Below, piece by piece: positions 744 to 32,210 of a stretch of 64,000 nucleotides of DNA. Source of the DNA: an uncultured Acidobacteriaceae bacterium (GTDB lineage Bacteria > Acidobacteriota > Terriglobia > Terriglobales > Acidobacteriaceae); assembly GCA_963759875.1 (NCBI GenBank), contig CAVXBB010000016.1, positions 745,579 to 809,578 of the forward strand, in the 5' to 3' direction. The notes under the pieces were generated by a model. That model searched no databases. It had not been told where the DNA came from and saw only the letters and a program-made list of their open reading frames with translations. A program made the translations under genes and the position numbers. Numbering within the stretch: position 1 is the stretch's first letter; each line of letters begins with the position of its first letter.

Positions 744-2066
744 TCACTCCACCGCCTTCCCTCCGCTCTTGAACACCTTTCCATCCTTCATTACGAACTG
801 CACATTCTCCAAAACCTTCACGTCGCTCAACGGATCCCCATTCACCGCCACGATGTCCGCGTAAGCTCCCGGCGCAATCGCACCGATTTTGCCTTCCATT
901 TCCAGCATCTCCGCCGGCCGTGAAGTCGCGCTTTTAATCGCATCCATGGGAGACATCCCAAGCCTCACCATCTGCGAAAACTCCTGAGCAATCGGCTCAC
1001 TCCAGGAAATTCCGCCCATGTCAGTGCCAAAAACAATCTTGACTCCCGCATGCAACGCCTTCGGAAACGACACTTCATGCACCGCGGCCCGCTTGCGATC
1101 ACGCTGCCCATTCGGCGTATCCGCCGGCGCCCAATCCTTGTAATACGGACTGATCGTCGGACAATACCATGTCCCCTGTTTCAGCATTTGTGCAATCGCC
1201 GCGTCGTCCAAATCAAGTCCGTGCTCAATCGAATCGCAGCCGCCATCGAGCGCCCGATGCAGCCCAATCCCTCCATACGCGTGGCACGCCACTTTCTTTT
1301 GCCACCCATGCGTCTCATCCACTATCGCCTTCAGTTCTTCCACCGTCAGTGTCGGCTGAGACACCAGTTCGCCATTTTTGCCCACCCACGACCGGTGTGT
1401 CATATAGACCTTGATCCAATCGGCCCCATGATCCAGTTGTTCCCTCGCCGCCTTTCGCGCTTCCACCGGCCCATCGATCAGTTGTGCCCCTTTCGGCATG
1501 TCCAGCTCGGGCGCGTAATCTTCCAGCATGTAACCGCCCGTTGTCGAGATTGCCCGCGTCACGACGAACATTCGCGGCCCAGGGATATAGCCTTTTTCAA
1601 TCGCCTCTTTAATGCCAACATCGCCATATCCCGCACCCTCGGTTTCGAGATCGCGCAAAGTGGTAAATCCCTGTTCCAGCGCTCGCCGTACCGAGACCGT
1701 CGCCCGCGCTGCGCGCAATGCCAGCGGAGGATAAAGGATATTCGCATCATAGCCGCCCTGCGCCGGGTCTTCTCCCTGCAGAAAAATGTGAGTGTGCGAA
1801 TCGATCATTCCTGGCAGCACCGTGGCGTGCGAAAGATCAATTACGTTTGCGTCCGCAGGAATTTTCGCCCTCGTAGCATCACTTACACTGTCAACCCGGT
1901 CGCCACGAATCACGATGACCTGATCGTGTTTCACCCCATCTGATTTGCCGTCAATCAGCGTCCCCGCCCGAATCACGGTGAACGTGTGCAATGCCGGAGT
2001 TTCTTGCGCGCTGCCCGTAATCAAACTAAAAACCGCGACGAACAGAACCACCAGCGAGTTCTTCAT
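744..2066 (-). CDS. secreted metal-dependent amidohydrolase (imidazolonepropionase / Xaa-Pro dipeptidase-like family)
   Basis: 440-aa ORF with signal peptide MKNSLVVLFVAVFSLITGSAQ, metal-binding DSHTHI motif, and later HAYG and GTDMGG motifs typical of the amidohydrolase superfamily. Confidence 0.85.
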   Translation of the reverse strand: MKNSLVVLFVAVFSLITGSAQETPALHTFTVIRAGTLIDGKSDGVKHDQVIVIRGDRVDSVSDATRAKIPADANVIDLSHATVLPGMIDSHTHIFLQGEDPAQGGYDANILYPPLALRAARATVSVRRALEQGFTTLRDLETEGAGYGDVGIKEAIEKGYIPGPRMFVVTRAISTTGGYMLEDYAPELDMPKGAQLIDGPVEARKAAREQLDHGADWIKVYMTHRSWVGKNGELVSQPTLTVEELKAIVDETHGWQKKVACHAYGGIGLHRALDGGCDSIEHGLDLDDAAIAQMLKQGTWYCPTISPYYKDWAPADTPNGQRDRKRAAVHEVSFPKALHAGVKIVFGTDMGGISWSEPIAQEFSQMVRLGMSPMDAIKSATSRPAEMLEMEGKIGAIAPGAYADIVAVNGDPLSDVKVLENVQFVMKDGKVFKSGGKAVE

Positions 2067-2151
2067 AACTCTTCCAATCGATTGTCACAATTCTGCATGC
2101 GCGTGCTGGCCATTCTACGCCAGAATCTCAATTCATCCCGTGCAAACGATT

Positions 2152-2216
2152 GTCATCCTGACGAAGCGGGATTGCCTGCAGGCAATCCCAGAGAAAGGAT
2201 CTATGCATTTGTGGGG
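2152..2216 (+). repeat. REP-like element family 1
   Basis: GTCATCCTGACGAA-[hairpin GCGGGATTGCCTGCAGGCAATCCC]-AGAGAAAGGATCTATGCATTTGTGGGG. A near copy lies 107 bp downstream. Confidence 0.7.
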
Positions 2217-2258
2217 ATGACAAAGCCCGCCACTCCCGACTCCGGCAGCTTTCTGATT

Positions 2259-2320
2259 GTCATCCTGAAGCGGGGTTGCCTGCACACAGGCAACCCCCGA
2301 GGAAGGATCTATGCATTTTA
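2259..2320 (+). repeat. REP-like element family 1
   Basis: GTCATCCTGAAGCGGGGTTGCCTGCACACAGGCAACCCCCGAGGAAGGATCTATGCATTTT. Same architecture as 2152-2216. Confidence 0.7.
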
Positions 2321-2379
2321 GGAGAAAGAAAGCGACGCCTCGTCTGCTGAGAACCTGATAGAACGCTAATTGCTGAAAG

Positions 2380-3105
2380 CTACTTCAACGCTTGCAGCTT
2401 CGCCGACGCCATCTGCGCCGCTTCCGTGGCGGGATTTTCCTTCTGGATCTGCTCGTACGTTCGTTTTGCTTCCAGCGGCATATTGGCCGATTGGTAGGTT
2501 GCCGCCAGCTCCATTTGTGCCGTCGTCTTGCTCACCGTGGCCGTCGGTTTGGCAATGATCTCGTTATAAATATCAATCGCCTGCTTGTCACGATTTGTGT
2601 CCCTATACACTGAAGCCAGCGCAAACTTCGCCAGCGTCGCCAGCTCTTTTTTGTGATACGACGCAACCCCCTTCAATTCGCGTTCGGCGGCCGCATTGTC
2701 CCCCATCTCCGCCGAGGTCAGGCCAAGAAAGTAGTGAGAAAAATCCGCGGCGTGGGTATGCGGATAATTATTGACGACGTCTTCAAATTGCTTATGCGCC
2801 GCCGTCGCCCGTTCCTTGATGCTGGCAAAACTGGCGACCTCCGGCTGCGGCGGCATGTTCGGCGGCCGAATCGGGGTATCCATCGTGCGCACCGCCTGGC
2901 TGAACTCCACGCTGGCCTTCTGGTCCTGCTGGTTCCCGTAATACCAGCCGCCAAATGCAAGCCCCACGATGACCAGCACGACAATGGCGGCCACAATCAG
3001 CTTGTTCTGATGTTCAACCGACCAATGGAGAGTCCTTTCGGCTGTGTCGATGGTGACTTTGCTGAATCGGTCTTGTTTTAGCTGATGGCGGGTTTGTGCG
3101 CGCAC
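2380..3105 (-). CDS. membrane-anchored TPR-like protein (YfgM-like)
   Basis: 241-aa ORF with one N-terminal TM helix (LIVAAIVVLVIVGLAFGGWYY) followed by a helical-repeat domain. Confidence 0.65.
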   Translation of the reverse strand: MRAQTRHQLKQDRFSKVTIDTAERTLHWSVEHQNKLIVAAIVVLVIVGLAFGGWYYGNQQDQKASVEFSQAVRTMDTPIRPPNMPPQPEVASFASIKERATAAHKQFEDVVNNYPHTHAADFSHYFLGLTSAEMGDNAAAERELKGVASYHKKELATLAKFALASVYRDTNRDKQAIDIYNEIIAKPTATVSKTTAQMELAATYQSANMPLEAKRTYEQIQKENPATEAAQMASAKLQALK

Positions 3106-3377
3106 GAACTTCCCTTCTGCTGGTTAGATAAGGTGGGCTGGCAAACATTCAGTCTAGCAGGGAAAAAACCGGAGCGTCAAAGCGCTATGACCAAATCACT
3201 GCCGACCCGCTCAAGAGTATTCGGGGAGCACCGCAAGCCTTATCGGGCATAGAACGAGAAGGATCATTCCTGAAACTACCTTCCACTTCGTGTATTCTCG
3301 CGGCCTCAAGCTGCTGCTTTCTCTCCTCTGACCCCTAATAATCCCACCAGTTCTTTAAACTCGAAACGGGTAGTGGG

Positions 3378-3521
3378 CTACTTTGAATTTTTGTCGAAAA
3401 GCTTTTGAATCCCGCCATCACCCAAATCTCGCGTGTAAAGCTTCTTGGCTTGCCAATATTTGAGCCACGACCAAAGAGCGGCAACAGCGCAAGCCAAGAG
3501 TATTGAAAGAACTGCCTTCAT
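3378..3521 (-). CDS. possible small membrane protein (47 aa)
   Basis: My own translation: MKAVLSILLACAVAALWSWLKYWQAKKLYTRDLGDGGIQKLFDKNSK. Below the ORF-track size cutoff. Its last codons and stop lie inside the 3369-3390 repeat. Confidence 0.25.
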   Translation of the reverse strand: MKAVLSILLACAVAALWSWLKYWQAKKLYTRDLGDGGIQKLFDKNSK

Positions 3522-3524
3522 AAG

Positions 3525-3757
3525 CTACGCTGCTCTTTCCGCCCTCCGCTGTTCGTAGGCTTCCCACAGGGCTACTAAATCTTCTACGCTCCAGAGCCGG
3601 TCTGTGACTCCAGCTGCCATTGCTGGACTCATGCGCAGCGTACGATGAGTCTTAATGAAATTATATGCGAAATAATTGAGAGCTACAGCAGCATGATTAG
3701 CAAGTTTGCGACTGAATCCATTCGACAAGCGGGTATAGCGGCGCATGTGCGTGCGAA
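3525..3757 (-). pseudogene. DDE transposase C-terminal fragment (IS1-like, COG3677-type tail)
   Basis: Only ...RTHMRRYTRLSNGFSRKLANHAAVALNYFAYNFIKTHRTLRMSPAMAAGVTDRLWSVEDLV... survives. There is no catalytic N-terminal part. The break coincides with the repeat at 3760-3781. Confidence 0.5.
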
Positions 3758-3815
3758 CCGGTAGTGGGCTGCTTTGAATTTGAGGATAACGGCATAAGAC
3801 ATTAGGAGAATCCAA

Positions 3816-4013
3816 ATGTTCGAAGGTCTGTTTCAGCCAATTCACCTGCTGCTAATCGTGACGCTCGGTTTCGTCGTACTCACCCCATTCTGGCAAAGTT
3901 TCAAGAAGGCTGGTTTCAGCCCCTGGCTATCCCTCTTGACGATGATCCCTCTCGTCAATTTGCTCGTGTTTTATTATGTCGCTTTCGCACGATGGCCTGA
4001 AAAATCAAAGTAG
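3816..4013 (+). CDS. small two-TM membrane protein
   Basis: 65-aa ORF with two hydrophobic helices (LLLIVTLGFVVLTPFW and LSLLTMIPLVNLLVFYYVAF). Its stop is embedded in the repeat at 4001-4022. Confidence 0.35.
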   Translation: MFEGLFQPIHLLLIVTLGFVVLTPFWQSFKKAGFSPWLSLLTMIPLVNLLVFYYVAFARWPEKSK

Positions 4014-4080
4014 CCCACTACCTGCGAACGAGATCGGACGGCTCGCCCGTCCCACGCTGCTATAATGAAGAATTGTCCTC

Positions 4081-4623
4081 ATGCTCAGAAAGCGCCTAGT
4101 CCGTTCCACCACCGTCCTTTGTGTCCGCAGAAATGGCACCGTCGTAATGGCCGGAGACGGCCAGGTCACTCTGGGCGAGGGCGTAATCAAGCACTCGGCC
4201 AAGAAAATCCGCCGCCTTTACCAAGACAAAATTCTGGCCGGATTTGCCGGTTCGACCGCCGACGCTTTTTCGCTCTTCAGCCGTTTCGAGTCCAAGCTGG
4301 AGCAATATCACGGCAACATCGGCCGTGCTGCCGTCGAGCTGGCTAAAGACTGGCGCACCGACAAATTCCTGCGCCACTTGGAAGCCCTGCTGCTGGTTTC
4401 CGACAAAGAACAAACATTTTTGCTAAGCGGCCAGGGCGACGTCATCGAGCCGGACGGCGGAATCGCCGCCATCGGCAGCGGCGGCCCCTATGCGCAGGCC
4501 GCAGCTCAAGCTCTCGTCGAGCAAACCCAACTTTCGGCCCGTCAGATCGCCGAAGAAGCCATGAAGATTGCCGGCAAAATGTGCATCTATACTAATGATA
4601 AGGTAACCATCGAGGAACTATGA
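4081..4623 (+). CDS. hslV: ATP-dependent protease subunit HslV
   Basis: 180-aa ORF with [22 protein letters not shown] (Ntn-hydrolase Thr), [10 protein letters not shown] and GSGGPYA motifs. Lies immediately upstream of hslU. Confidence 0.95.
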
Positions 4624-4687
4624 TTCCCACGTAGGGACGCGCGTCCCGTCCGCTCGAGCGTAGCTCGACAAAATCGCTAATACCAAT

Positions 4688-6103
<1,416 letters not shown>

Positions 6104-6406
6104 CTAGTTGGCTTATTGTCCTTCGGCCCTTTCCTCGGCCCTCCCATCGCAGTGGGCGCGGGCAAGCCGTCAGCGCTTTCCCAACTTACCAGGCTCTAAG
6201 CGATTTCTAATATTTCCTTTGTTTACAAGCCCTTGCTCTAGTCCCAAGTAACCGTCGTAATCTTTACGCCTGCCGAACACCCCCATGAAAATCAGAATTT
6301 AGAACCCTTTGCAGCAACAGTAGTAGCGCCTCAGGAACCGAAGCGGCTGCTCGTGCAGCTCCCCCGGCACCTGTATCCGGCTACGGAAACAATGGGTGTT
6401 TCCTGC

Positions 6407-7671
6407 ATGAAGTGTCGGGTTATCGCGGTTCTCGGCACGCGGCCTGAAGCTATCAAGTTGGCGTTGGTGATTCAGGAATTGCGCCGGCGTTCGGAAGAGT
6501 TTGAAACCGCCGTAGTCCATACCGGTCAGCATCGCACCATGCTCGACCATGCCCTGAAGTTCTTCAAGATCAAACCCGACTTCGATCTGGATGTCATGCG
6601 TCCCAATCAGACGCTGAACTCCCTTACCGCGCGCGTATTGGATACGGTCGAAAATGCCTGCCATCGCTTCGAGCCTAACATGGTGCTGGTGCAGGGCGAT
6701 ACTACAACGGCGTTTGCCTCCGCGCTGGCGGCGTACTACTGCAAGATTGCGGTTGGCCACATCGAGGCAGGCCTGCGCAGCCACGACATTTACAACCCGT
6801 TCCCGGAAGAAGCCAACCGTCGGCTGGTCTCGGTGCTGACCGAAATTCACTTTGCTCCCACTGCGCTTTCGCGCGGGAAAACCTGCTGGCCGAGGGCGTG
6901 CCTGCCGAAAAAATCGTGGTTACCGGCAACACCGTGATCGATACGCTTGCGCGCTCCTCAGCGCACTTGCCGCATTCCTGGGAGAACACGCCCCTGGCCG
7001 GCATCCCGTGACGATGGCTCCCGCCTGGTGCTGGTCACTTCTCATCGGCGCGAATCCTTGGGGTACGGATCAGGAGAATATGTGCCTGGCGCTCAAGGAT
7101 CTGGTGCAAGCGCATCCCGATATTCGCGTCATCTATCCCGTGCACATGAATCCCAACGTCCGCAGCACGGTGAATGCGCTGCTGCAGAATACGGACCGAA
7201 TCCATCTGACTGAACCGCTCGATTACATCACTTTCGTCAGCCTGTTGCGGCGTTGTTTCCTGGTGCTCACTGATTCCGGCGGAATTCAGGAAGAAGCGCC
7301 CACGTTCGGGAAGCCCGTGCTGGTGCTGCGCAAACTTACGGAGCGTCCGGAAGCTTCGCAGTTTGGCATGGCCAAAATCATCGGCATGTCGCGCGAGGGC
7401 ATCGTCAACGAGACCGAGTCACCTGCTCAACGATGCGGAAGCGTATCAGGACATGTCGGAGGGCGGAAATCCTTACGGGGACGGTCACGGTTCGGAGCGG
7501 ATCGTGGAGGCGGTGGCCCGCTGGCATGCGAAGAAGACTCCCGACTGCTCGGAGAGCCGACAAGCAATTCAAGCTGGCCGCCCGCGGACCGACTTCCGCG
7601 GCGTCGGCAAAGGAGCGACGCTCGACGGAAGAACGCAGTCGCAAAGCCGGCCGGCCGCAGGCAAGGAGTGA
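6407..7671 (+). pseudogene. wecB: UDP-N-acetylglucosamine 2-epimerase, at least 4 frame breaks
   Basis: Homology runs through five frame segments: MKCRVIAVLGTRPEAIKL...HIEAGLRS...EEANRRL; ARENLLAEGVPAEKIVVTGNTVIDTL; RLVLVTSHRRESLG; QENMCLALKDLVQAHPDIRVIYPVHMNPNV...DSGGIQEEAPTFGKPVLVLR; NPYGDGHGSERIVEAV. Frames go 2>1>2>0>1. Confidence 0.8.
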
Positions 7672-7704
7672 CCACGCAGCAAGCTCCTGCGTCTGGGCTG
7701 TCGG

Positions 7705-8960
7705 TTGCGCGCCATGATTTATGTTCTCTACATCATTGTTTTCGGCAGCATCTGTGTCTATACCGGCCGCCACTACTGGTTCACCCTGAATCGGCTGTTC
7801 GGTTTCCAGCGCCATCCTTACATCGACATCGACACCGCCGACTGGCCTCCCGTCACCGTGCTGGTGGCGGCTCACAATGAAGAAAAAGTTATCGCCCACA
7901 TTCTCGAGCCTTGATGACGGTGAAATATCCCGCGGACAAAATGCTGGTGATTCCGGTCAACGACCGTTCCACCGACCGCACCCGCGAGATCATCGATGAG
8001 TTTCGTCAGAGCGCTTTCCCGGGCGCATTCAGCCCTTTCCATCGGGCTCGCGGGCAAAGGCGGCAAAGCGGCAGCACTGAAAGATGCCATGGAACTGGTG
8101 ATCACCGAGGTCATCCTGATTTTCGATGCGGATTACATTCCCGGGCGCCGGGCTGATCAAGCAGCTGGTTGCGCCGTTCTTCGATCCCGAAGTCGGCGGC
8201 GTCATGGGCCGGGTCGTGCCTATGAATGTCGGGCACGAATCTGCTGACACGTCTGCTGGATCTGGAACGGTCGGGCGGCTACCAAGTGGATCAGCAGGCG
8301 CGCATGAACCTGCGCCTCGTGCCCGCAACATGGCGGCACGGTGGCGGGAGTCCGGTTGAGCGCTCTGCGGGAAATTGGCGGATGGAACGAGAACTCGCTG
8401 ACCGAAGACACCGACCTCACCTATCGCCTCTTGCTGAATGGCTGGAAAACCGCATACCAGAATCGGTCGGAGTGTTACGAGGAGGTTCCCGAAGTGTGGC
8501 CGGTGCGCGATCAAGCAGATCATGCGCTGGGCCAAGGGCCACAACCAGGCCATGGCGACATATGGTCTGCCTCTGCTGCTGGGCAAGAATCGCGCTACCC
8601 TGCGGGAACGGATTGATGGCACGTTGCTGCTGGGAGTGTATGCCATGGCGCCGGTCACGCTTATCGGCTGGGCGCTGGCGCTCGCAGTGTTTTATCAGGG
8701 CGTGGCTCCGCTGCATGGCGTCATCGCCTTGCTTTCTCTGACGGCCTACGCCGCCATCGGCAATCTCGCCGCTTTCTTCGAGATCGCCGCCGCGGCTCGA
8801 CTGGATGGCACGCGCAAGCGAATCTGCCTGCTGCCATTCCTCATTCTGGGATTTGCGGTCAGCATCTTCTCCGTCTCCCGCGCCGCGGCGGTTCAAATCA
8901 GCGATCTGGTGACCGGGGCTGAGTTCCACTGGGACAAAACTGAGCGTTTCGGAAGGTCTT
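7705..8960 (+). pseudogene. processive family-2 glycosyltransferase (polysaccharide synthase), at least 6 frame breaks
   Basis: Pieces in seven frame segments: VTVLVAAHNEEKVI; YPADKMLVIPVNDRSTDRT; GKGGKAAALKDAME..ILIFDADY; GGVMGRVVPMN; LLDLERSGGYQVDQQAR; SALREIGGWNENSLTEDTDLTYRLLLNGWK; IMRWAKG followed by TM helices. Confidence 0.75.
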
Positions 8961-8999
8961 GTGAATCCGTATCTCGCAGTGGCCGCTTTGGTTGTATGG

Positions 9000-9960
9000 T
9001 CAGCCTGATGTTCGTGCTGCCACTTTTCCCGCGTTGGTGGAATTGCGCCGCAAGTCGGACGCGTTGCCGCTCAGCGTAGTCCAGCAAAATGCCGGCGAAA
9101 TCCGCTATTTTGCCGACAGCTTTCGGACCTATCATCAAGGGACTCGAACCACCTGCAAGAGTGCGTTGGCTGCGGACGACGGCAACCGGCGTGCTTCCCG
9201 ACGGCGAGGAATATGTGGTGCTCGGCCGCGTGCGACGAGCCTCTGCTGCTTGCGCTGCAACAACGAGACAAAACCCACCTGGTGATCGGCGCCGGACGTT
9301 GACCTCATCCTGCCGGCTGAAGCCACATTTTCAAAGGACATCTATGCCGGCGGCCAATTCATTGGCGGAGTGAAGAACAACTTCCGCGCGATCCTGGGAG
9401 AAAAAAACGTTCACCTGGGCGCTGCCAGCCGCGTGCTGCGTTGGGTTCATGCCGTAGGCGAGTTCACGGCCGACCTCGGCTGCGATCTCTACGGGCGCAT
9501 TTCCTCCGACTCGCGCATACGTCTGCGGGCCGGTTGCAGTTTCTTGCGGCTGAATGCTCCGCGTATTGAAATCGGGGGCGTTGCCAGCTCCTCTAGAGGC
9601 ACCATCGCCGCAGTCCGAATCTCCCAGACGCGGCAATGCCGCATCGTTTTCTGCATGACGGCGACTTCGAGGTTCAGGCCGGCCAGGTCGTCGTCGGCGA
9701 CATCGTGATCCGAGGCAAGTTGCGCATTGGTTCGGGCGCGCGAATTTGCGGCAGCGTGAAGAGCGTCGGCGATGCGGTGATCGCGGACGGCGTCGTGGTG
9801 GAAGGCAGCCTGATCAGCGCGCAAAAAATGCGCATTGGGCCGCACTGCGCGATTCATGGGCCGGTGATTGCCGAACACGAACTGGCGATCGCAACCGGAG
9901 CCCGATGCGGCACGTTTGAACATCCCACGACGGTCAGTGCGCCCACGGATCGAAGTTGAA
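9000..9960 (+). pseudogene. bactofilin-like repeat protein, fragmented
   Basis: Fragments such as NVHLGAASRVLRWVHAVGEFTADLG and GDFEVQAGQVVVGDIVIRGKLRIGSGARICGSVKSVGDAVIADGVVVEGSLISAQKMRIG show the beta-helical bactofilin pattern. They are spread over at least 3 frames, and start and end are not resolvable. Confidence 0.35.
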
Positions 9961-10036
9961 GAAGGTGTGGCCGTGTTTGGCACATTGTGGGCGCGCGAAC
10001 AGGGCCAGGTGGTTACGGCCCGATGGTGGCCAGGCA

Positions 10037-11910
10037 ATGACGCGCACGCGGGTCGTCGTCGCGACGGGTTGTCTTATTCTCGTGGCCCTGATCGCATGGT
10101 CGTGGGCAGACCCACGACCGCTTTCGTTCTACTGCCGATCGACTGCTCTTGCTGGTGCCCGACGGCACCAGTTTCTCCAATCCTAAAGTCACCATGTGGC
10201 TTGACGCTGGCAGCGAAGAAGGACTTCATGTTGTCCCGGTTCATGACTCTGAATTTCTTCGTCCTCTTTGGGAGAGTCGAAGTGCGCAGGGGTGATTCTG
10301 CCGGATTCCATCCACCAGCAGGCCAGTGACCTTTTTGTCGCGACGCTCCACCGATTTGTAAGCCGACGGCGGAAAACTGATGCTGGTCTACGATGCCGGC
10401 ACGTTCTCTCTGAATGGCACTTATGCGGGCGGACGTTCCCGGCTGTCAGACCTGGCGGGCGTGGATTACGCTCTCTACGACAAACTTGGCGACAAGACGA
10501 TCCAATGGAGCAAGGTCACCAGCAGCAATGCGATGGTCAGTCAGATGGAAATACCTCCGGGAAAATACTATCCGTTCCATGCGGAAACCAGCGCCTCCGT
10601 TAAGAAGGGTGGTCCACCAATTACTCCCGCCGGAGACTTCGAAGTTGAGCTCAGGCGCTACAAGTATGGCGAGCTGCAATATCCCAGCTTCGTAACTTCC
10701 GGCAACTACGCGGCGAGGTTTTATTTCACTCCAGCAACGGACTCGTGGCCGGTGAACAGCCCTTTCAAAAAGGTTCCGTCTTGTTCGTGAATCTGCCTCT
10801 CGGATATCTGAAAGGCAACACGGACGGCTTACTGCTGCACGCTTTTCTCAGATATTTCGCCGGTCACGCGCTGGCTTTGCCTTACTTGATGTCCGTGCCG
10901 GATGGAGTCGGCGGGCTGGTGCTGAACTGGCACATCGACTCCAACGCCGCCATCAAGCCGCTGCAGGAGATGAGTTCATGGACTCTGCTGCAACAGGGGC
11001 CATACTCGATTCACATCACTGCCGGACCCGATGCGGGCAAGTTTGGCGACAGAAAGGGTTTTGACGTGGACCACAATCCCGTCAGCCAGAACCTGATCCG
11101 CCAATATCGTGAACCTGGGTTATCAGATCGGCAGCCACGGCGGCTGGATTCATGATTATTTTTCTGCGCACGTCGAAACCGATAATCCGAAAGACCTGGA
11201 ACAGTTTCTGGCTTTGAACCAAGAATTCTTTAGAGCAAGCTACGCGGCAAACCGGTCGATGAATATTCCGCTCCCAATGGCAATCAGCCGCCATGGGTGA
11301 CGCACTGGCTGGAGGCTCACGGTTTCGTCGCTTACTACTTCACCGGCGATACCGGAATGGGTCCGACGCAAGGCTATCGCAACGGCGAACGCGAAGCCCG
11401 CAACGTGTGGGCGTTTCCCATCCTCCATCTGGATCGGGCCGCGGGTTTCGAGGAGATGAGACCGGAAGGATATTCCAGCTCTGAGATCGAGCGCTGGCTT
11501 GCGGCGCATCACCGACTTCGCGGCCGAGCGCCGAATTGGTGAGGCTGGTCTATTTCCATCCGCCCGGAATTCTGCAATACCACGATGTGGTCGATCGGTG
11601 GATGGAACAGACCGGCCGGCTGAAAGCCGACGGACGATTTCGCTGGTACACCATGACCGACCTCGCCGCTTTCCTGAATTCGCGCAAGCAAGTGAAATGG
11701 AGCCTGTCGCACGAAGGCCGTTTCATGAAGCTCGACGCCACCGACCCCACTAATCTTGAGCATTTCGCTTGGTTTCTGCCGGAGCGCACCTTCACTCGTC
11801 CAACCGTAGTCACAGGCTCCGCCACCGTCACTAAACACACTGACGGATGGCTCATCGTCGCTGGTCCGGGCACTCACATTGAAATCGAAGCTGAGGCACC
11901 GTCGCAATGA
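10037..11910 (+). pseudogene. large anchored polysaccharide-modifying protein (deacetylase-like), at least 7 frame breaks
   Basis: Starts with signal-anchor MTRTRVVVATGCLILVALIAWSW. Later fragments (LVLNWHIDSNAAIKPLQEM, IGSHGGWIHDYF, VWAFPILHLDRAAGFEEM, VYFHPPGILQYHDVVDRWMEQ) lie in alternating frames. The deacetylase assignment is weak. Confidence 0.4.
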
Positions 11911-14041: not shown

Positions 14042-14118
14042 GGGCGCGTAGCTCAAACGGACAGAGCATCGGATTTCTAATCCGAGGGTTGCAGGTTCAA
14101 TTCCTGCCGCGCCTACCA
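14042..14118 (+). tRNA. tRNA-Arg (anticodon UCU), CCA encoded
   Basis: Hand-folded cloverleaf: acceptor GGGCGCG/CGCGCCT, D arm GCTC..GAGC, anticodon arm TCGGA-TTTCTAA-TCCGA (TCT), variable loop GGGTT, T arm GCAGG-TTCAATT-CCTGC, discriminator A, then CCA. Confidence 0.92.
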
Positions 14119-20885: not shown

Positions 20886-21572
20886 CTATTCTCGGGCGGC
20901 ACGCTCCAAACGCGCCCGGTGCAGGATGCGGATCTGCTTTCTTTTCACTTCAATAATGCCTGCCTTCTTGAGTTCTCCTAGCGCTGCTGTCGCTGACTCC
21001 CGATAAACATGCAGGCGCTGCGCAAGCTCCTTGTGCGTTATATCGTGGATCAGATCCCCATCCGCTCTCTCCAGCAGCAGGTTGGCCAAGCGCGGAATCA
21101 ACTGTTGGAACGAGGTGGCATCCAAGTCCTTCAGCACGTGAACAAATCGCTGGCTTACCAGGTCGAGCAGCCGCCGAACGATGATGGGATGTTGTTCAAG
21201 GAGCGCCTCCAGGTCCGATCGAGAAACGATCCGAATGCGCGAAGGCTTGGCTGCTTGCGCACAGCAGTGGTAGAGGCCTTGGCCGACGCAGCCCATTTCG
21301 CCAAACACCGCGGGCGACTTCAGTTCGGCGATAATTAACTTTTTCCCGCCGGATGTCCGGAACGTTTGCACCGCCCCCTTTTCCAACAGGAACAGTGCCT
21401 CGCCGGTTCCCCCCGTCTTGAAGAAAACATGCCCGGCGGGGAAGTCCCGGACCTTGCTCCTCTCTTCAATCGTTTGCAAGCAGGCCGCCGGAAGCCCTTG
21501 GAACAATTCCAGCGCAGAAAGCGCAGCAGCGTCCCCGAAGCTTTCGGCCTGAGCCACTTGTCTCTCCTTCAA
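20886..21572 (-). CDS. Crp/Fnr family transcriptional regulator
   Basis: 228-aa ORF with a cNMP-binding barrel (FFKTGGTGEALFLLEKGAV...FGEMG) and a C-terminal HTH (THKELAQRLHVYRESATAALGELKKAGII). Confidence 0.88.
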   Translation of the reverse strand: MKERQVAQAESFGDAAALSALELFQGLPAACLQTIEERSKVRDFPAGHVFFKTGGTGEALFLLEKGAVQTFRTSGGKKLIIAELKSPAVFGEMGCVGQGLYHCCAQAAKPSRIRIVSRSDLEALLEQHPIIVRRLLDLVSQRFVHVLKDLDATSFQQLIPRLANLLLERADGDLIHDITHKELAQRLHVYRESATAALGELKKAGIIEVKRKQIRILHRARLERAARE

Positions 21573-24008: not shown

Positions 24009-24140
24009 GTTTTAATGCTCTAACGCGGACCCCGACGATGTTGTCCAGAAGTCCTCTTCGAGGAGATCTCCGCGAAGTTTGGGGGGAGCTTCAGGCTGCA
24101 CCTGTACGCGTCAGCGACTACAACCGGGTTGTGACTCGGA

Positions 24141-24836
24141 TCAATCCTCAAAATACTGAGTGACCATGTTCTTATGCGTCTGAATGCGCTCGGTCAAATA
24201 CTCAATTGTCTGAGAACGCTTTCCACACCAATCGAGGTGATCGAGAAGTTTGCTCTTCAATGTGGTCCACGTCGCTTGAGCGCCAGCGCTGCCGGTCCCC
24301 CATTTCCACCACACCCAGTGGAGGGGCTCGATGCCGACCGGTGCGAATACGCGAGCAGATTCATGAACGAACAATCCAAATGGAGGCGCTCCTCGTTCTG
24401 CAAGATGCGCTTGGACCATCGGCATCCCGAGGAGGATCTTATCTCGATGAGCTGGGTGGTTTTGGAGTTCCAGTGAACACGGTCCACAATCTCGACCATG
24501 TATTACGGGACCGAAGGCGAGTCCTCCACGGATACAAAAGCGATGGTGTGATTCTGTTTCGGCGTTGAACTCGTCGGCGACCGCCTTAAAGACCCCCCTA
24601 AGAAAATCAAGCATTGCATTTCGATCTTGACACGCGACATAGAATCCATCCATCACAGGGTAAAGATGTATGTTTGGCGTTGCCGCTTGAAGGGCGGCTA
24701 TGTGGAGCTTGAATATGAAATTCGCTGTCGCGCTAATGGAGCGGGACATGGAAGACTGGGTGCCCATGACATCGACCCATGCCACATATTCTGATTGCAT
24801 CTGCGGCAGGTTATCAGCGTTGAACGGAATCGGCAT
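24141..24836 (-). CDS. minimal palm-domain nucleotide cyclase-like protein
   Basis: 231-aa ORF with YVAWVDVMGTQS, YPVMDGFYVA, IRGGLAFGPVIHG and LLGMPMVQAHLAE in the order and spacing of class III cyclase / GGDEF-type palm domains. No other domain is present. Confidence 0.55.
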   Translation of the reverse strand: MPIPFNADNLPQMQSEYVAWVDVMGTQSSMSRSISATANFIFKLHIAALQAATPNIHLYPVMDGFYVACQDRNAMLDFLRGVFKAVADEFNAETESHHRFCIRGGLAFGPVIHGRDCGPCSLELQNHPAHRDKILLGMPMVQAHLAERGAPPFGLFVHESARVFAPVGIEPLHWVWWKWGTGSAGAQATWTTLKSKLLDHLDWCGKRSQTIEYLTERIQTHKNMVTQYFED

Positions 24837-24946
24837 CGCCCTATCCTAGCAAACCTCTCAACGCATAGCTGGCAAGCGCCCGACCCGCCGATGTACGCGG
24901 AACGATGCAAGCCGCATGTCGTGCCAAGGGTCTTGGCTGGCGCGGA

Positions 24947-26147
24947 CTAGTTCGCGCGCGAGCGTTCCTTGCTGTGGAGCAGCAAGAGGTAAATCCAGAT
25001 CTCCAGTTGGGCCATCTGGATGCGGACAAGTTCAGGATCATCCGCAAACGTATGCACGAACTTCTGCGTACGGTTTACGCTTTCGCTGAATTGCAGCAGC
25101 GTGTCAGCTTCGCCCGCTCTTTCCTCGCCCAGGACGTAATCGAGCCGCATCCGACGAGTCGGCTGGGCAATGTTTTTCGGACGGGCTTGCCAAATAGCAG
25201 TAGTTTTAACCTCGGCGTCCGGAGCAAGCGCGTGCAGAATGTCCGTAAATAGTTCGCGGATGCCTGCCATACCAAGCCGGGCGCCAGCTATACCGCCGCC
25301 CCCCAGATTCCGCCACGCCTGCCGGCGGAGTTCGAGCAGGCGCTCGTCGAAATCCCGCAACGCTAGTTCAAGTTTCTCGCCAATCTCTTCATCGCGGTGC
25401 GGCTTGCCGTGCCCTGCCCGCTCGCCGCCTTCCGAGGGTGGCAGGCGTGGCGGCAGACGGCAGACCAGCTCGGCGTGGTCGAAGACGAACCTGGCTCGCG
25501 ACCGCCAGTCGATCCGGGGACACCGTCGCGTGAGGCAGGATCGCTGTCGCGTGGAACGTCTCCAGTGCCGCGGTATTAAGGACGCAATCCTCAAGCAGCT
25601 GAGCGCGACTGGCCAGCACGTTACCGGGCCAGTTGAGCACAGCGGTTTCGGGAATGGTGAAATTGATTCGCGCCATCTCCGCGATCTCGGCAGTGACGGA
25701 CTCGAAATCGTGGAGCCACTTTTGGTCTGCAAGCCTCAGTGCATCCAAGGCTAGCCGATGGGAATCAAGCTGCGATGCGAAGTGCATCCCAATCTCTGCA
25801 ACAGTGGTGCGAAGCGGGGTAAGGGTCTGGGCAAATTCCACCTCGATGCTCGCAGTCATCTCGGATAGACGCGCAGCATTGGCTTGACACGCGCGGAATT
25901 CCGGACTCATCTGAAAAGAAGCAATTGCACGGGACGCGAGGTTCAGTTCCTTGACCAAGGGGCTCGATGCGAGATCTATGGATAACTTTTCTATAGCGAG
26001 CGCACTCGTCGGAACCAGGATGTCTACCGCGCGCGTCTGCCTCAGGAGGCGTTCCAATTCCGGTTGAGCGAACCGCAGTTGGCGCTCGGCGTTGCCCATA
26101 AGATTGAGTTCGGTCAGGAGCCGCAGAATGGAGTCCACTTCTTTCAT
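24947..26147 (-). pseudogene. helical protein with C-terminal HEPN-like R-x5-H motif, one frame break
   Basis: The N-terminal ~210 codons are in the frame of ORF 25389..26147 and the C-terminal ~180 codons in the frame of ORF 24947..25732. The switch lies near 25470-25520 (GGGG run at 25516-25519). The C-terminal part contains NRTQKFVH. Confidence 0.5.
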
Positions 26148-26606
26148 CTTGCCCCGAATCTAACACGTGCCTCCAAACCCGGTGCAAGTGAAAAAACGCC
26201 CGGGAGACTAACCACCCTTTGATGAGATGGGCGCACGATGATCACTCCGGACGGGCAATTCGCCGAAGCGGGGCCAGAAGTCGGCTTGTAGGAGATTTCA
26301 CCAGATCGGTACTGGGAAACGCGCTTATGGACAGTTAATCGAGCCAGTCACAGGCCCACAGGAAATTGGTCTAATTCACACGAAGGCAGAGCCTCAGATA
26401 CGTTGTCCGATGCTCTTCGTAAGTAGTTGAATCTGTATACCCCAATTTGGGCAGGTGCAAGGAAGTTGCAAGTAAGCATCAACTGCGGCCGCCTGAATAC
26501 TTACCAGGTTACTCGGATTTCTCTTCGCCAGCCGGAAACAGTTCGGGTTTTGTCCCTAGTATTTCGAGGGTTCAGCCGGTGACGATCGAAAAGAACTGAA
26601 GCCAAA

Positions 26607-27639: not shown

Positions 27640-27856
27640 GTGATCCTCCTGAATCTCTCACGAACAGTTTTATTCCGGGTACATCAACGGCGGATACTGT
27701 AACAATTGAAAAAGGCTGGCTGGAGTAACACCACTCAGAGCAATCCGCCGCCCTACTGCACCTCAGAAGCTGCAGCTCCGGAAGCAGCGGGAGAATAGTG
27801 TCACAGCCGGATGAAATTCACAATATCAGGAACTAGTTACACATTCTCGCTGCGTT

Positions 27857-27919
27857 CTGGGAGTCACCTGTCAATTTTTACGGTGTCAGCCATCGAGGTT
27901 TCTGGATAAAATTATTCGC
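27857..27919 (-). promoter_or_regulatory. conserved 63-nt upstream motif, copy A
   Basis: About 75% identical to 28648-28711. Lies 218-280 nt upstream of the GlsB-like gene. The minus strand reads ...ATTGACAGGTGACTCCCAG. Confidence 0.4.
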
Positions 27920-28230
27920 ACTTCACTTTTCACTTCTCTTCCGGCGCTCCGTTCGCACACCGAGCGAGCGCCGGGATTCTTGTTTCCGCGCATCCGAGCG
28001 TCTGCATCATCGCTGAAATTCCCCGTTGCACTTCCGGGCAGCGGTTAGCCCCATTCCGAGCCGCACCGGGGTTAGAATGAAAACACATTCACAAAGCAAA
28101 CACCAAAGAGAATGGACACTTTATTGCCTGTCGGGACTCCGGAAGTCGGCGGGCGTTTTTGCGTTAGGCCGCTGCCGAGTGCTGCCGTTCGGGACTCTAC
28201 GCAGGTCGGCATTTTTGACCAGGGATGGGT

Positions 28231-28527
28231 TTATATACTGGGCGGGAAAGGGAAACCAGCGGCCTTCAGATATTCGAGTGTCCCGGGAATCACTTCCACG
28301 GCAACATTCACCCCATTTGGAAGAGTAGTGTGACAGTGCCGACACCGTAGAACCTCATCACGATCAAGCCTCTGCTTAAGTTCGTCGGGGTCGTTTGTCG
28401 GAGAGTTTATACCAGCCTTTTCCGCGCTGAGTTCCCGGCATATGGGGCATGAGAAGCTGAACGTCACGCCAAACCGATAGCGATTTCTATTACTGCACAC
28501 TTGCGCTTCTGCTTCGCGGTTCATCAT
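28231..28527 (-). CDS. small Cys-rich hypothetical protein
   Basis: 98-aa ORF with CPIC...CRHC pairs suggesting a zinc ribbon. Confidence 0.4.
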   Translation of the reverse strand: MMNREAEAQVCSNRNRYRFGVTFSFSCPICRELSAEKAGINSPTNDPDELKQRLDRDEVLRCRHCHTTLPNGVNVAVEVIPGTLEYLKAAGFPFPPSI

Positions 28528-28647
28528 CGGTCAAGAAGTCCAAAAGAGGCAGGGGTCTTGACAGGTATAGATGCCGCGCGGGGCGGGTAAGCCCCTTGTA
28601 CCCCTGTGTTAAGGAGCTACTAAGGAATACTGTAGGCACCGCAAATG

Positions 28648-28711
28648 CTGGGAGTCGCCTGTCAATCCTTACAGTATCCACCGTTGAGGCACCCGGAATA
28701 AAAGTGTTCGC
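28648..28711 (-). promoter_or_regulatory. conserved 63-nt upstream motif, copy B
   Basis: Paralogue of 27857-27919. Lies 121-184 nt upstream of ORF 28231..28527. Confidence 0.4.
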
Positions 28712-30653: not shown

Positions 30654-32210
30654 TGTGTCTGTTGAAAAAGTCCATCAGTTGATGCTTGTGAGGGTATTAC
30701 GTTCGCGTTATAAGCAGGCCAGAGTTTCCGATGCTGCTGTTCACCGCTTCATTTGGGGGTCTGCTGCTCATGATGGGACAAAAATCCCGCGCGGAGTCGC
30801 TGTTTTATTACTTCCGCCTCGACGATCAGGTTCCTGAAAATCATCTGCTGCGCCTGATCGATCGCCATGTCAACTTCGAATTCATTCGAGCCAAGCTGAA
30901 GGACTCCTACAGCGATGTGGGAAGGCCATCGATCGACCCAGAACTGCTGTTGCGCATACTGCTGGTCGGTTATCTCTACGGGGTCACGAGCGAAAGGAAA
31001 CTGGTGGAAGAGCTACGCATGCATCTGGCGTGGCGTTGGTTCACCGGACTGGGTTTCGATCAGGAGATCCCTCACCACTCGACCTTTTCGAAGAATCGGC
31101 ATGGACGATTCCAGGAATCGAATCTATTTCAGGAGCTGTTTGAGGAGATCGTCACCCACTGCGTACAAGCCGGATTGGTGAAAGGCGAGCACATGTCGGT
31201 AGATGGCAGTTTCGTCCAGGCTAACGCCGATCATCACAGCCGCGTTCCTCGCGAGCACCTGGCAGAGGTGGCCAAGGTGAAGCGCACGGTGCGCGAGTAT
31301 CTGGCCGAACTGGAACAGGAGAATCCAGTCGAAGCTCCGGTTCCGCAGCAGGAGCAAGTCTCAACCACGGATCCGGATTCGACGTATGCGACCAAAGGCG
31401 GTCCGGCGCGACTGGGCTATTACGACAACTATTTGGTCGATAACAGCAGTTGCGTCATTGTAGGCGTGCAAGCTACCGCGGCGCGACTGAGTCACGAGAG
31501 CGCTGCGGCGCGTGACATGATCGAACGATATCGCGAACGTCACGGTTACCTGCCGCAGACACTGGCGGCAGATAACACCTACGGCAACGGTGAGCTTCTG
31601 CAGTGGCTGGATGAACGGGGCATAGCTCCTTACATCCGGGTGAAAGAAAACCCCAATGGGCCGAGTGATCTCTATGGCATCGAGAAGTTCACCTACGTAC
31701 CCGAAGAGAATTACTACATCTGCCCGGAAGGCAAGCCCCTGAAGTACGTCGGAATCAGTCGGCGCAACCGCACTCATCTTTATTACTCGACGGTAAAGCG
31801 TTGTCACGACTGCCCGCAGAAGAACCGCTGCACACGAGCCAGATTTCGGAGTCTCGCCATTCACACCTGTGAGCCGGCGCGGCAGCGCGCCTATGCTCTC
31901 GCCAAGACACCAGGGTTCGCGATCTCACAACGGGCTCGACGGAAGGTGGAAGCACTCTTTGCAGAACTGAAGAACCAGATCGGACTGCGTCGTTTGAGAT
32001 TGCGACGGATGCGGTTTGTACGCGAGCAGTTCTACCTGGCGGCCACGGTACAAAATCTCAAACGACTGGTGCGCTTCCTCAGCTCCAAGCCAACCCCGCA
32101 GAATGCAACTGCATGAACGTGGCAGAAAGAGGTAAGAAGCAAATCACCAGACACGGAGTAAAAGAAAAAGGCGCGCTGCGACTAGGAGTTTTTCAACAGA
32201 CACGCCTGTT
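30646..32210 (+). mobile_element. IS1182-type (IS5 superfamily) insertion sequence, copy 1
   Basis: Terminal inverted repeats ATCGCCTGTGTCTGTTGAAAAAG (left) and the complement of AACAGGCGTGTCTGTTGAAAAAC (right) flank a single transposase gene. Ends are good to about 5 nt. Confidence 0.75.
30731..32116 (+). CDS. IS1182-type DDE transposase
   Basis: 461-aa ORF with the InsH-type N-terminal domain (FYYFRLDDQVPENHLLRLID...GRPSIDPELLLRILLVGYLYG..SERKL) and a C-terminal ...EALFAELKNQIGLRRLRLRR. Confidence 0.9.
   Translation: MLLFTASFGGLLLMMGQKSRAESLFYYFRLDDQVPENHLLRLIDRHVNFEFIRAKLKDSYSDVGRPSIDPELLLRILLVGYLYGVTSERKLVEELRMHLAWRWFTGLGFDQEIPHHSTFSKNRHGRFQESNLFQELFEEIVTHCVQAGLVKGEHMSVDGSFVQANADHHSRVPREHLAEVAKVKRTVREYLAELEQENPVEAPVPQQEQVSTTDPDSTYATKGGPARLGYYDNYLVDNSSCVIVGVQATAARLSHESAAARDMIERYRERHGYLPQTLAADNTYGNGELLQWLDERGIAPYIRVKENPNGPSDLYGIEKFTYVPEENYYICPEGKPLKYVGISRRNRTHLYYSTVKRCHDCPQKNRCTRARFRSLAIHTCEPARQRAYALAKTPGFAISQRARRKVEALFAELKNQIGLRRLRLRRMRFVREQFYLAATVQNLKRLVRFLSSKPTPQNATA

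Follow-up and report, generated by a model that had tools for sequence, protein, structure and literature searches.

To our knowledge, all cyclic-nucleotide defences known so far (type III CRISPR, the cyclic oligonucleotide-based anti-phage signalling system CBASS, Pycsar, Thoeris and Panoptes) couple a signal synthase with an effector that is encoded next to it. In Panoptes (PMC12657218, PMC12657230), the synthase is mCpol, a minimal Cas10-like palm enzyme, and the effector is a 2TM or CARF-TM protein. Among nucleases, Agap, an Argonaute-associated HEPN RNase of Alteromonas, has been experimentally characterised (PMC11162769). The locus studied here lies in a 64,000-nucleotide stretch of contig CAVXBB010000016.1 from an uncultured Acidobacteriaceae bacterium (assembly GCA_963759875.1), which is referred to as the window. 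It consists of a 231-codon open reading frame (ORF) on the minus strand (24141-24836), placed downstream of a second minus-strand gene (24947-26147) from which it is separated by a 110-bp gap. An earlier note, made from the sequence alone, had taken them for a signal-making palm enzyme paired with a HEPN effector. The family of the 231-aa protein has no name and is called family A in this work, whereas family B designates the PF18165 family, to which the upstream gene belongs. We show that family A is an undescribed and widely scattered family of ~230-aa stand-alone proteins with the predicted catalytic fold of class III cyclases, conserved over its full length as a single domain, solitary and horizontally mobile in defence cargo sites. 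As to the locus itself, the reading that we favour with moderate confidence is that the two genes of the locus are unrelated defence-island genes, each mobile in its own right, whose adjacency is restricted to this acidobacterial lineage and which are not parts of a dedicated system.

Fold and candidate active site of family A

The family A gene of the window (24141-24836, minus strand) is intact, and its 231-aa product is predicted to adopt the class III nucleotidyl-cyclase (palm) fold in a stand-alone, highly derived form, to which two C-terminal helices are added. None of the Pfam, NCBIfam, PADLOC and PHROG models matches this protein, even at E = 1, a PDB sequence search with it retrieved no relative, and not even a weak Pfam match was obtained in any of 141 diverse members of the family. 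Structure prediction was far more informative. An AlphaFold2 model built from 49 homologues reached a mean predicted local distance difference test score (pLDDT) of 93.6 and a predicted template-modelling score (pTM) of 0.90. When this model was compared with the PDB by Foldseek, the first 41 places were all occupied by class III adenylyl or guanylyl cyclase catalytic domains, including those of CyaC, Rv1900c, Rv1625c, soluble guanylate cyclase and RhoGC, with a probability of 1.00, E-values from 9e-6 to 4e-4 and target-normalised template-modelling (TM) scores of 0.55-0.66 over 150-178 columns. Among the top 50 matches there was a single GGDEF domain, at rank 42, and no Cas10, and a search of a viral structure library likewise returned guanylate-cyclase and GGDEF domains.

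The candidate active site was delineated by analysing conservation in 141 family A representatives that are 30-53% identical to the window protein. The proposed first metal-binding aspartate, D22 (codon 24771-24773, minus strand, within WVDVMG), is located at the end of beta1 (DSSP strand 14-23) and is Asp in 100% of the 133 representatives aligned at this position. The proposed second one, D63 (codon 24648-24650, minus strand, within PVMDG), sits in the beta2-beta3 hairpin, between strands 57-61 and 64-69, and is Asp in 100% of the 141 representatives; the hairpin motif of the family can be written as P-V/I-M-D-G. Strand beta4 corresponds to IRGGLAFGPVIHG (residues 102-114; 24495-24533, minus strand), which aligns with LRVGLATGPVVAG of Rv1625c in an hhalign comparison that is not significant alone; R/K103, which opens this strand, is basic in 100% of the members, and G109 is invariant. 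Conservation of G25, G64, G109 and G154 reaches 99-100%, and that of E147, in the alpha4 region, 96%. The family also displays a G-T/S phosphate-loop-like turn and a C-terminal helical hairpin of its own: where the cyclase domain has beta7-beta8, the family apparently has a Trp-rich loop and a two-helix hairpin that is conserved (W179, Y213, H221). The kinship of family A with cyclases is, as judged from the model, established for the fold and the active-site geometry, not for the sequence. As far as this protein is concerned, the earlier note was borne out: the ORF is intact, the four cyclase-like motifs that it quoted are found at residues 17-28, 59-68, 102-114 and 135-147, the protein is a minimal core devoid of sensor or effector domain, the predicted fold is that of class III cyclases and palm domains, with cyclases in all 41 of the top 41 places, and the two putative metal-binding aspartates, whose variation among homologues the note had named as an argument against its proposal, are conserved in 100% of the relatives.

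A word-indexed search gave 243 close clusters of family A, and an exhaustive profile search over 1.84 billion protein representatives raised the number to 515 clusters at 50% identity, nearly all of them 220-260 aa long and aligned over their full length; this exhaustive search did not reach canonical cyclases. The spread of the family is patchy, covering at least 10 phyla, one archaeon included: its loci come from Acidobacteriota, Beta-, Gamma-, Alpha- and Deltaproteobacteria, Thermotogae, Chloroflexi, Actinomycetota, Planctomycetes, Bacillota and the archaeon Halovenus salina. Judging from the alignments, family A with an intact two-Asp site spans bacteria and one archaeon, and it is always found without a fixed partner. 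In the window the gene is under purifying selection, with a dN/dS of 0.15 against its counterpart in L078, a closely related metagenome locus. Fusions are rare, ~2-3 among the 150 representatives listed: an N-terminal cold-shock domain (CSD) is present in P0199 and in an ORF of L026 (5689-6741), and a C-terminal TRAM domain in P0206, a combination that hints at nucleic-acid binding by the family. One acidobacterial subclade (L027, L031, L035 and P0264) carries in addition a charged helical C-terminal extension of ~120 aa.

Genomic niche of family A and its relation to family B

Several of the neighbourhoods in which family A occurs carry defence genes. In a Myxococcales metagenome-assembled genome (MAG; L033), the family A gene (5159-5953) lies, with overlapping ends, between DrmD and DrmMI inside a class 1 DISARM operon (1593-10185). 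In a Thermotogae MAG (L015) it is preceded on the same strand by a gene for a type IIG-like methyltransferase and by an AbiU-like gene, and in Halovenus a PglX-like methyltransferase is found 1.1 kb downstream of it. Prophages provide a second type of location. Both in Aeromonas salmonicida ATCC 33658 (L013, 1474-9508) and in three IMG/VR contigs (L043-L045), the immediate neighbours of family A are replication gene A of P2 type, which it directly follows, and the opposite-strand terminase gene; this position is the P2 gpA-gpQ interval, described as a hotspot where P2-like phages carry anti-phage cargo (PMC9122126). An additional 358-aa gene of unknown function (phrog_8571) accompanies family A between gene A and the terminase gene in the P2-like prophage of these loci. 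Mu-like prophages of Metapseudomonas furukawaii and of one further IMG/VR contig have family A inserted on the opposite strand, with Mu F on one side and the portal gene on the other. Altogether, the family is present in five IMG/VR viral contigs. Other neighbours include DUF4062, SLFN/AlbA_2-ATPase, TIR_2 and HEPN_Swt1 genes, toxin-antitoxin pairs and an integrase fragment, and PADLOC matches among the neighbours include PD-T7-1, PD-T7-5, RT_II-A and RT_XIII. As a separate observation, an Acidobacteriota MAG (L001, 8798-9044) contains short repeats of 21-42 nt, with spacings of ~100 and 226 nt, in a 900-bp gap downstream of family A.

The association between the two families was analysed by searching the profiles of both over every fetched locus. 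The family A sample comprised 36 non-redundant loci outside the window, taken from GTDB genomes, IMG/VR and metagenome contigs, with flanks of up to 6-10 kb where the contig allowed it. No trace of family B was detected within ~6 kb in 35 of these 36 loci, none of ~25 other family B loci contains a family A gene, and no pairing was found in relatives at 78-83% identity. The single exception to this separation is the close relative L078. Regarding other possible partners, an all-against-all BLAST of ~35 loci uncovered no recurrent neighbour of family A beyond type IIG/DrmMI-like methyltransferases in 3 loci, the rest being shadow ORFs. A hydrophobicity scan of the 36 loci in search of a small membrane partner found same-strand ORFs with at least two hydrophobic segments in only 6 of them, and these adjoining membrane-like ORFs are mutually unrelated and non-syntenic. 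Likewise, no conserved non-coding flank was found beside family A, no Rfam match was present near the block of the window, and no linkage to cyclic mononucleotide (cNMP)-binding proteins is conserved among the neighbours.

The comparison with L078 also provides information about how the two genes moved. The block common to both loci (24077-25076, minus strand) is 1.0 kb long, with 92.8% identity, and runs from the final 43 codons of family B across the spacer and the complete family A gene to ~64 bp beyond it; the flanks are unrelated on both sides, and a TIR_2-domain gene lies upstream in L078. Family B is cut there to those 43 codons, while family A is intact. The 110-bp spacer (24837-24946) shares ~93% identity with L078 and belongs to the stretch that moves together with the 231-aa gene; when the block was scanned for promoters and terminators, neither a sigma-70-like nor a terminator-like site turned up. 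In the window, an imperfect 26-nt direct repeat (21/26 identical) surrounds the two genes. Its first copy (24045-24070, plus strand) is placed 7 nt from the point at which the homology with L078 stops, and its second copy (26274-26299, plus strand) lies 127 nt upstream of the start codon of family B; when the 5-kb region was Markov-shuffled 200 times, only 3 shuffles reached a repeat of this quality. This repeat may be an insertion scar, and the two genes may have arrived as a joint 2.2-kb insertion. The most likely explanation for their adjacency is either clustering in defence islands or such a joint insertion, not functional coupling. Both genes belong to well-conserved families (515 clusters for A and 43 close clusters for B), and they are therefore more than a product of chance.

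The upstream gene and the surroundings of the block

The family B gene (24947-26147, minus strand) appears in the window as two overlapping minus-strand frames, 25389-26147 and 24947-25732. The frame break maps to 25490-25491 (minus strand), where one G of a GG pair is extra (..GCC AG(G) TTC..): tblastn alignments of intact homologues, which read VASQFVFDH across this point, change frame here between VASQ and FVFDH. Removal of one G at 25490/25491 restores a clean ORF of 399 codons, in keeping with the ~400 aa that the earlier note had expected once a single break was repaired, even though that note had placed the break at 25516-25519, ~26 nt away from its actual site. Intact homologues measured 390-399 aa in one comparison, and forty-odd homologues span 370-400 aa. 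A second public assembly, 100% identical over 3.9 kb, has the same break; as both assemblies probably go back to one sample, the extra G may be a consensus or assembly error.

The repaired 399-aa protein combines a poorly predicted helical N-terminal half with a conserved helical C-terminal domain. It matches PF18165 (pP_pnuc_1, 'Predicted pPIWI-associating nuclease') at 25058-25339 (minus strand) with 48.8 bits, against a cut-off of 26.3, and an E-value of 7e-13, and the PADLOC model Aga_Nuclease matches a 46-residue stretch inside this region. PF18165 is found on all full-length homologues from the 43 close clusters of the family, for instance Acid345_4283 of Koribacter versatilis; a literature search under the Pfam family name returned nothing. 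The C-terminal domain bears the R-x5-H motif RTQKFVH (25052-25072, minus strand), numbered R359-x5-H365 in P0122. Among 30 aligned members, the Arg is present in at least 90% of the sequences, Q361, V364 and the His are invariant, and the preceding helices hold further invariant Arg and Glu residues. The motif fits the Rx4-6H definition of HEPN RNases and sits at the C-terminal end of a predicted helix. The structural model is confident only for residues ~250-398, which are all-helical with a pLDDT of ~90. No HEPN Pfam model matches the protein at E<=1, Foldseek with the full-length model gave generic helical matches only (E>=0.39), and no PDB sequence relative was found. The HEPN-like character attributed to this protein by the earlier note holds as regards the motif, since NRTQKFVH is present and its R-x5-H is near-invariant, but Pfam and Foldseek did not bear out the HEPN fold. 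From its sequence family B can plausibly be considered a predicted nuclease with a near-invariant R-x5-H.

Pfam revealed no CARF, SAVED, cNMP-binding or other ligand-sensing domain in family B. Similarly, no Argonaute or PIWI gene is present beside it in the Pfam-annotated loci (L005-L010 and L054) or in the window; the Pfam annotation of neighbours did not extend to the 24 metagenome loci of the family. One PF18165 subclade shows a conserved overlapping downstream gene of ~500 aa (L061 1187-2743, L062, L063 and L066; also L067, L069 and L071), for which no PDB sequence relative was found and which the window lacks; in that subclade, the true partner of family B may be this gene. In other genomes, too, family B is a solo gene of defence islands whose neighbours change. 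The family B copy of the window is best read as a decaying, recently inactivated solo defence-island nuclease gene that merely neighbours family A.

Beyond the two genes, the coordinates confirm the arrangement set out in the earlier note, with two co-oriented minus-strand genes 110 bp apart and without operon partners, and no co-oriented gene was found among the window ORFs within 1 kb of the block. On the low-coordinate side the genes are convergent, on the plus strand, and encode a weak match to uracil-DNA glycosylases, a MOSC protein and an alpha/beta hydrolase. The high-coordinate side is a 2.6-kb gene-poor stretch, with an IS5-type transposase gene (DUF772 + DDE_Tnp_1_6/DDE_Tnp_1) further on, at 30731-32116 (plus strand) and 4.6 kb from the block, which supports the idea of a locally plastic region. 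The GC content is unremarkable. Inside the gene-poor stretch (26.2-28.8 kb) there is a 49-nt inverted repeat (27661-27709 and 28662-28710; 88% complementary, 952 nt apart), whose terminal 16-mer is found nowhere else in the window, and a 55-nt direct repeat (27857-27911 and 28648-28702; 73%); the repeats of 27661-28710 look like copies of a small element similar to miniature inverted-repeat transposable elements. A Crp/FNR-type regulator with a cyclic-nucleotide-binding domain is encoded at 20886-21572 (minus strand), 3 kb from the cyclase-fold gene, a closeness to family A that is probably coincidental. The sole tRNA or Rfam match in the window, tRNA-Arg(TCT) at 14042-14118 (plus strand), lies 10 kb from the block and is no obvious integration site for it.

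Competing readings and comparison with described systems

The proposal of a dedicated two-gene signalling defence, in which a signal made by the cyclase-fold protein activates a HEPN-like RNase and the window copy has been damaged recently, accounts for several features of the locus. The genes are co-oriented and 110 bp apart, the 26-nt direct repeat brackets exactly A and B, the order of the B 3' end, spacer and A is kept in L078, the R-x5-H of family B is conserved and the family is one of predicted nucleases, and its homologues are often followed by a co-oriented gene, albeit a variable one. Nevertheless, outside one lineage the two families do not co-occur, as 35 of 36 A loci and ~25 B loci, including relatives at 78-83%, lack the other gene, and because of these data the model is close to refuted. 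The adjacency that the earlier note expected to recur in other genomes is essentially absent, L078 alone retaining it, by descent and with B mostly deleted. In addition, B has been damaged twice, by the frameshift here and by an almost complete deletion in L078, while A remains intact and constrained, which is the opposite of what is expected for a synthase and its effector. Nor does B contain a Pfam-detectable CARF, SAVED, cNMP-binding or other ligand-sensing domain, and its HEPN fold is unconfirmed. The pair of a signal-maker and a HEPN effector advanced in the earlier note is consequently not supported, given that both sets of loci are unpaired, B is frame-shifted and no nucleotide-sensing domain is recognisable; we regard such a system as highly improbable.

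Other alternatives concern family A alone. It could be an RNA-directed palm enzyme, either an RNA-end nucleotidyltransferase or an RNA-activated one, with Cas10 and Thg1-type enzymes as the nearest analogies. This is in line with the fact that the sole recognisable fused domains bind RNA or single-stranded DNA (CSD in P0199 and L026, TRAM in P0206), with the absence of the canonical base-specifying and transition-state residues of cyclases and with the apparent replacement of beta7-beta8 by a Trp-rich loop and two helices. Such fusions are rare, though (~2-3 among the 150 representatives listed), the best structural matches are cyclases and not Cas10, Thg1 or polymerases, and neither a conserved RNA-like flank nor a nearby Rfam match goes with the gene, so that we deem this reading unlikely. 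A role as a phage or mobile-element factor for counter-defence or competition, for example through decoy nucleotides or interference with host signalling, would explain the presence of the family in Mu-like and P2-like prophages, in a mobile-element-like region and in five IMG/VR viral contigs. It seems quite improbable, considering that these prophage sites are usual defence-cargo sites, such as the P2 gpA-gpQ hotspot (PMC9122126), that most loci are chromosomal and some of them lie inside host defence operons such as DISARM, and that none of 50,697 sequenced phage genomes contains the family. An ordinary regulatory cAMP/cGMP cyclase core feeding host cNMP receptors, for instance the Crp/FNR-type regulator at 20886-21572, would agree with the class III fold, the intact Asp pair and the presence of that Crp-family gene 3 kb off. 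Yet the distribution of family A is patchy and horizontal-looking, with accessory positions in prophages and defence operons, its neighbours show no conserved linkage to cNMP-binding proteins, adenine- or guanine-specifying residues are lacking, and none of the 141 members gives a Pfam Guanylate_cyc signal; this possibility is accordingly held to be very unlikely.

The picture of two separately mobile genes, one of them coding for a cyclase-fold enzyme of defence islands, has to be weighed against a number of observations. The direct repeat brackets exactly the B-A block and the adjacency is kept in L078, so both genes may have moved together; family B often precedes a co-oriented but variable downstream gene, and some residual room is thereby left for a modular pairing of A and B. 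At the sequence level, profiles give no link between family A and PF00211: hhalign against the catalytic domain of Rv1625c, in which WVDVMG pairs with FADIVG and IRGGLAFGPVIHG with LRVGLATGPVVAG, or against a 120-homologue profile, reached a probability of 3-10%. A third homology search for the cyclase profile collected only sequences at least 69% identical to the query, a profile too narrow for the purpose. The equivalence of D22 and D63 with the cyclase Asp pair is suggested by predicted topology and not by superposition. The canonical base-specifying pair (Lys/Asp or Glu/Cys) is not conserved in family A, at positions assigned without structural alignment, and the Asn/Arg pair of alpha4 is absent, Q142 taking the place of the expected Asn in 67% of the members, with no conserved Arg. 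With these canonical cyclase residues missing, a chemistry other than cyclisation is possible. Finally, a recognised defence gene is found within 4 kb in only about one quarter to one third of the family A loci, and tblastn gave no match of the family in 50,697 phage records and 72,556 plasmids, for which reason the defence role is something that we infer.

With these points taken into account, the reading of family A that we prefer is a defence-island enzyme that transfers nucleotides and needs no partner gene. It would be an active Mg2+/Mn2+-dependent nucleotidyl-transferring enzyme that attacks the alpha-phosphate of a nucleoside triphosphate (NTP), probably as a homodimer by analogy with other cyclase-homology domains, and it would act alone in conflicts with phages or mobile elements. 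As products, cyclic mononucleotides, oligonucleotides and modified RNA ends all come into consideration, and the read-out might consist in a receptor encoded in trans, in the depletion of NTPs or in an RNA target. The more specific idea that family A is a single-gene anti-phage defence, in the form of a bare cyclase-fold enzyme whose gene has no effector gene next to it, is put forward tentatively, as a possibility on which we would not rely. Under this single-gene scheme the nucleotide would act in trans on a host or phage target, or the enzyme would drain NTPs, and the trigger may be sensed through the helical hairpin conserved at the C terminus or, in view of the rare fusions to CSD and TRAM domains, may be RNA. 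If family A indeed proved to serve in defence, nucleotide-based immunity would include a format with one gene only, the family would be the first effector-less member of the defences based on cyclase or palm signalling, and annotation pipelines would gain a new family to look for. In a more general sense, the locus serves as a caution that attractive neighbours of the type 'synthase + HEPN' can result from the crowding of defence islands alone.

Compared with described systems, family B is closest to PF18165 and PADLOC Aga_Nuclease, with which it shares a match above the curated cut-off, the conserved Arg/His motif and the presence of the domain on 40+ homologues; it differs in the lack of an Argonaute/PIWI neighbour in annotated loci and in an additional N-terminal half, helical and ~250 aa long; the window copy is moreover frame-shifted. 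With HEPN RNases (HEPN-MNT toxins, Csm6 and Agap) it has in common an all-helical C-terminal domain, the R-x5-H and the residence in defence islands, whereas it shows no HEPN Pfam match and no PDB sequence relative, and its motif is placed at the C-terminal end of a predicted helix.

As for family A, class III cyclases (PF00211; CyaC 1WC0/1WC4, Rv1625c, Rv1900c and soluble guanylate cyclase) have the same predicted fold (palm, beta-alpha-beta-beta-alpha-beta), with a Foldseek probability of 1.00. They resemble the family in the topology of the Asp at the end of beta1 and the Asp in the beta2-beta3 hairpin, the places at which these enzymes bind two Mg2+/Mn2+ ions, in the basic residue that opens beta4 ahead of a G-x-V/I-x-x-G strand, and in helix alpha4 after a conserved Gly. 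They differ from it in that family A lacks a profile relationship, the base-specifying pair and the alpha4 Asn/Arg, ends in a Trp-rich loop and a two-helix hairpin (Y213, H221) in place of beta7-beta8, never carries a sensor domain and has its niche in defence islands and prophages. As predicted by the model, the agreement with class III cyclases concerns the fold and the metal ligands only. Pycsar, which combines the pyrimidine cyclase PycC with a TIR or transmembrane effector, likewise relies on a small class III-type cyclase fold without a sensor domain, but family A matches no PADLOC model at E<=1 and has no conserved adjacent effector. The mCpol of Panoptes and the Cas10 palm of type III CRISPR are, like family A, minimal palm enzymes in a defence context. 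In family A, by contrast, the hairpin reads V/I-M-D-G instead of the GGDD/GGDE of Panoptes, Cas10 and GGDEF domains, the structural neighbours are cyclases, there is no CRISPR context, and, as opposed to Panoptes, no membrane effector is adjacent in 30 of the 36 loci. Family A therefore stands apart from Pycsar, Panoptes and type III CRISPR by the features that define each of them, and yet it resembles the palm and cyclase synthases of all three.

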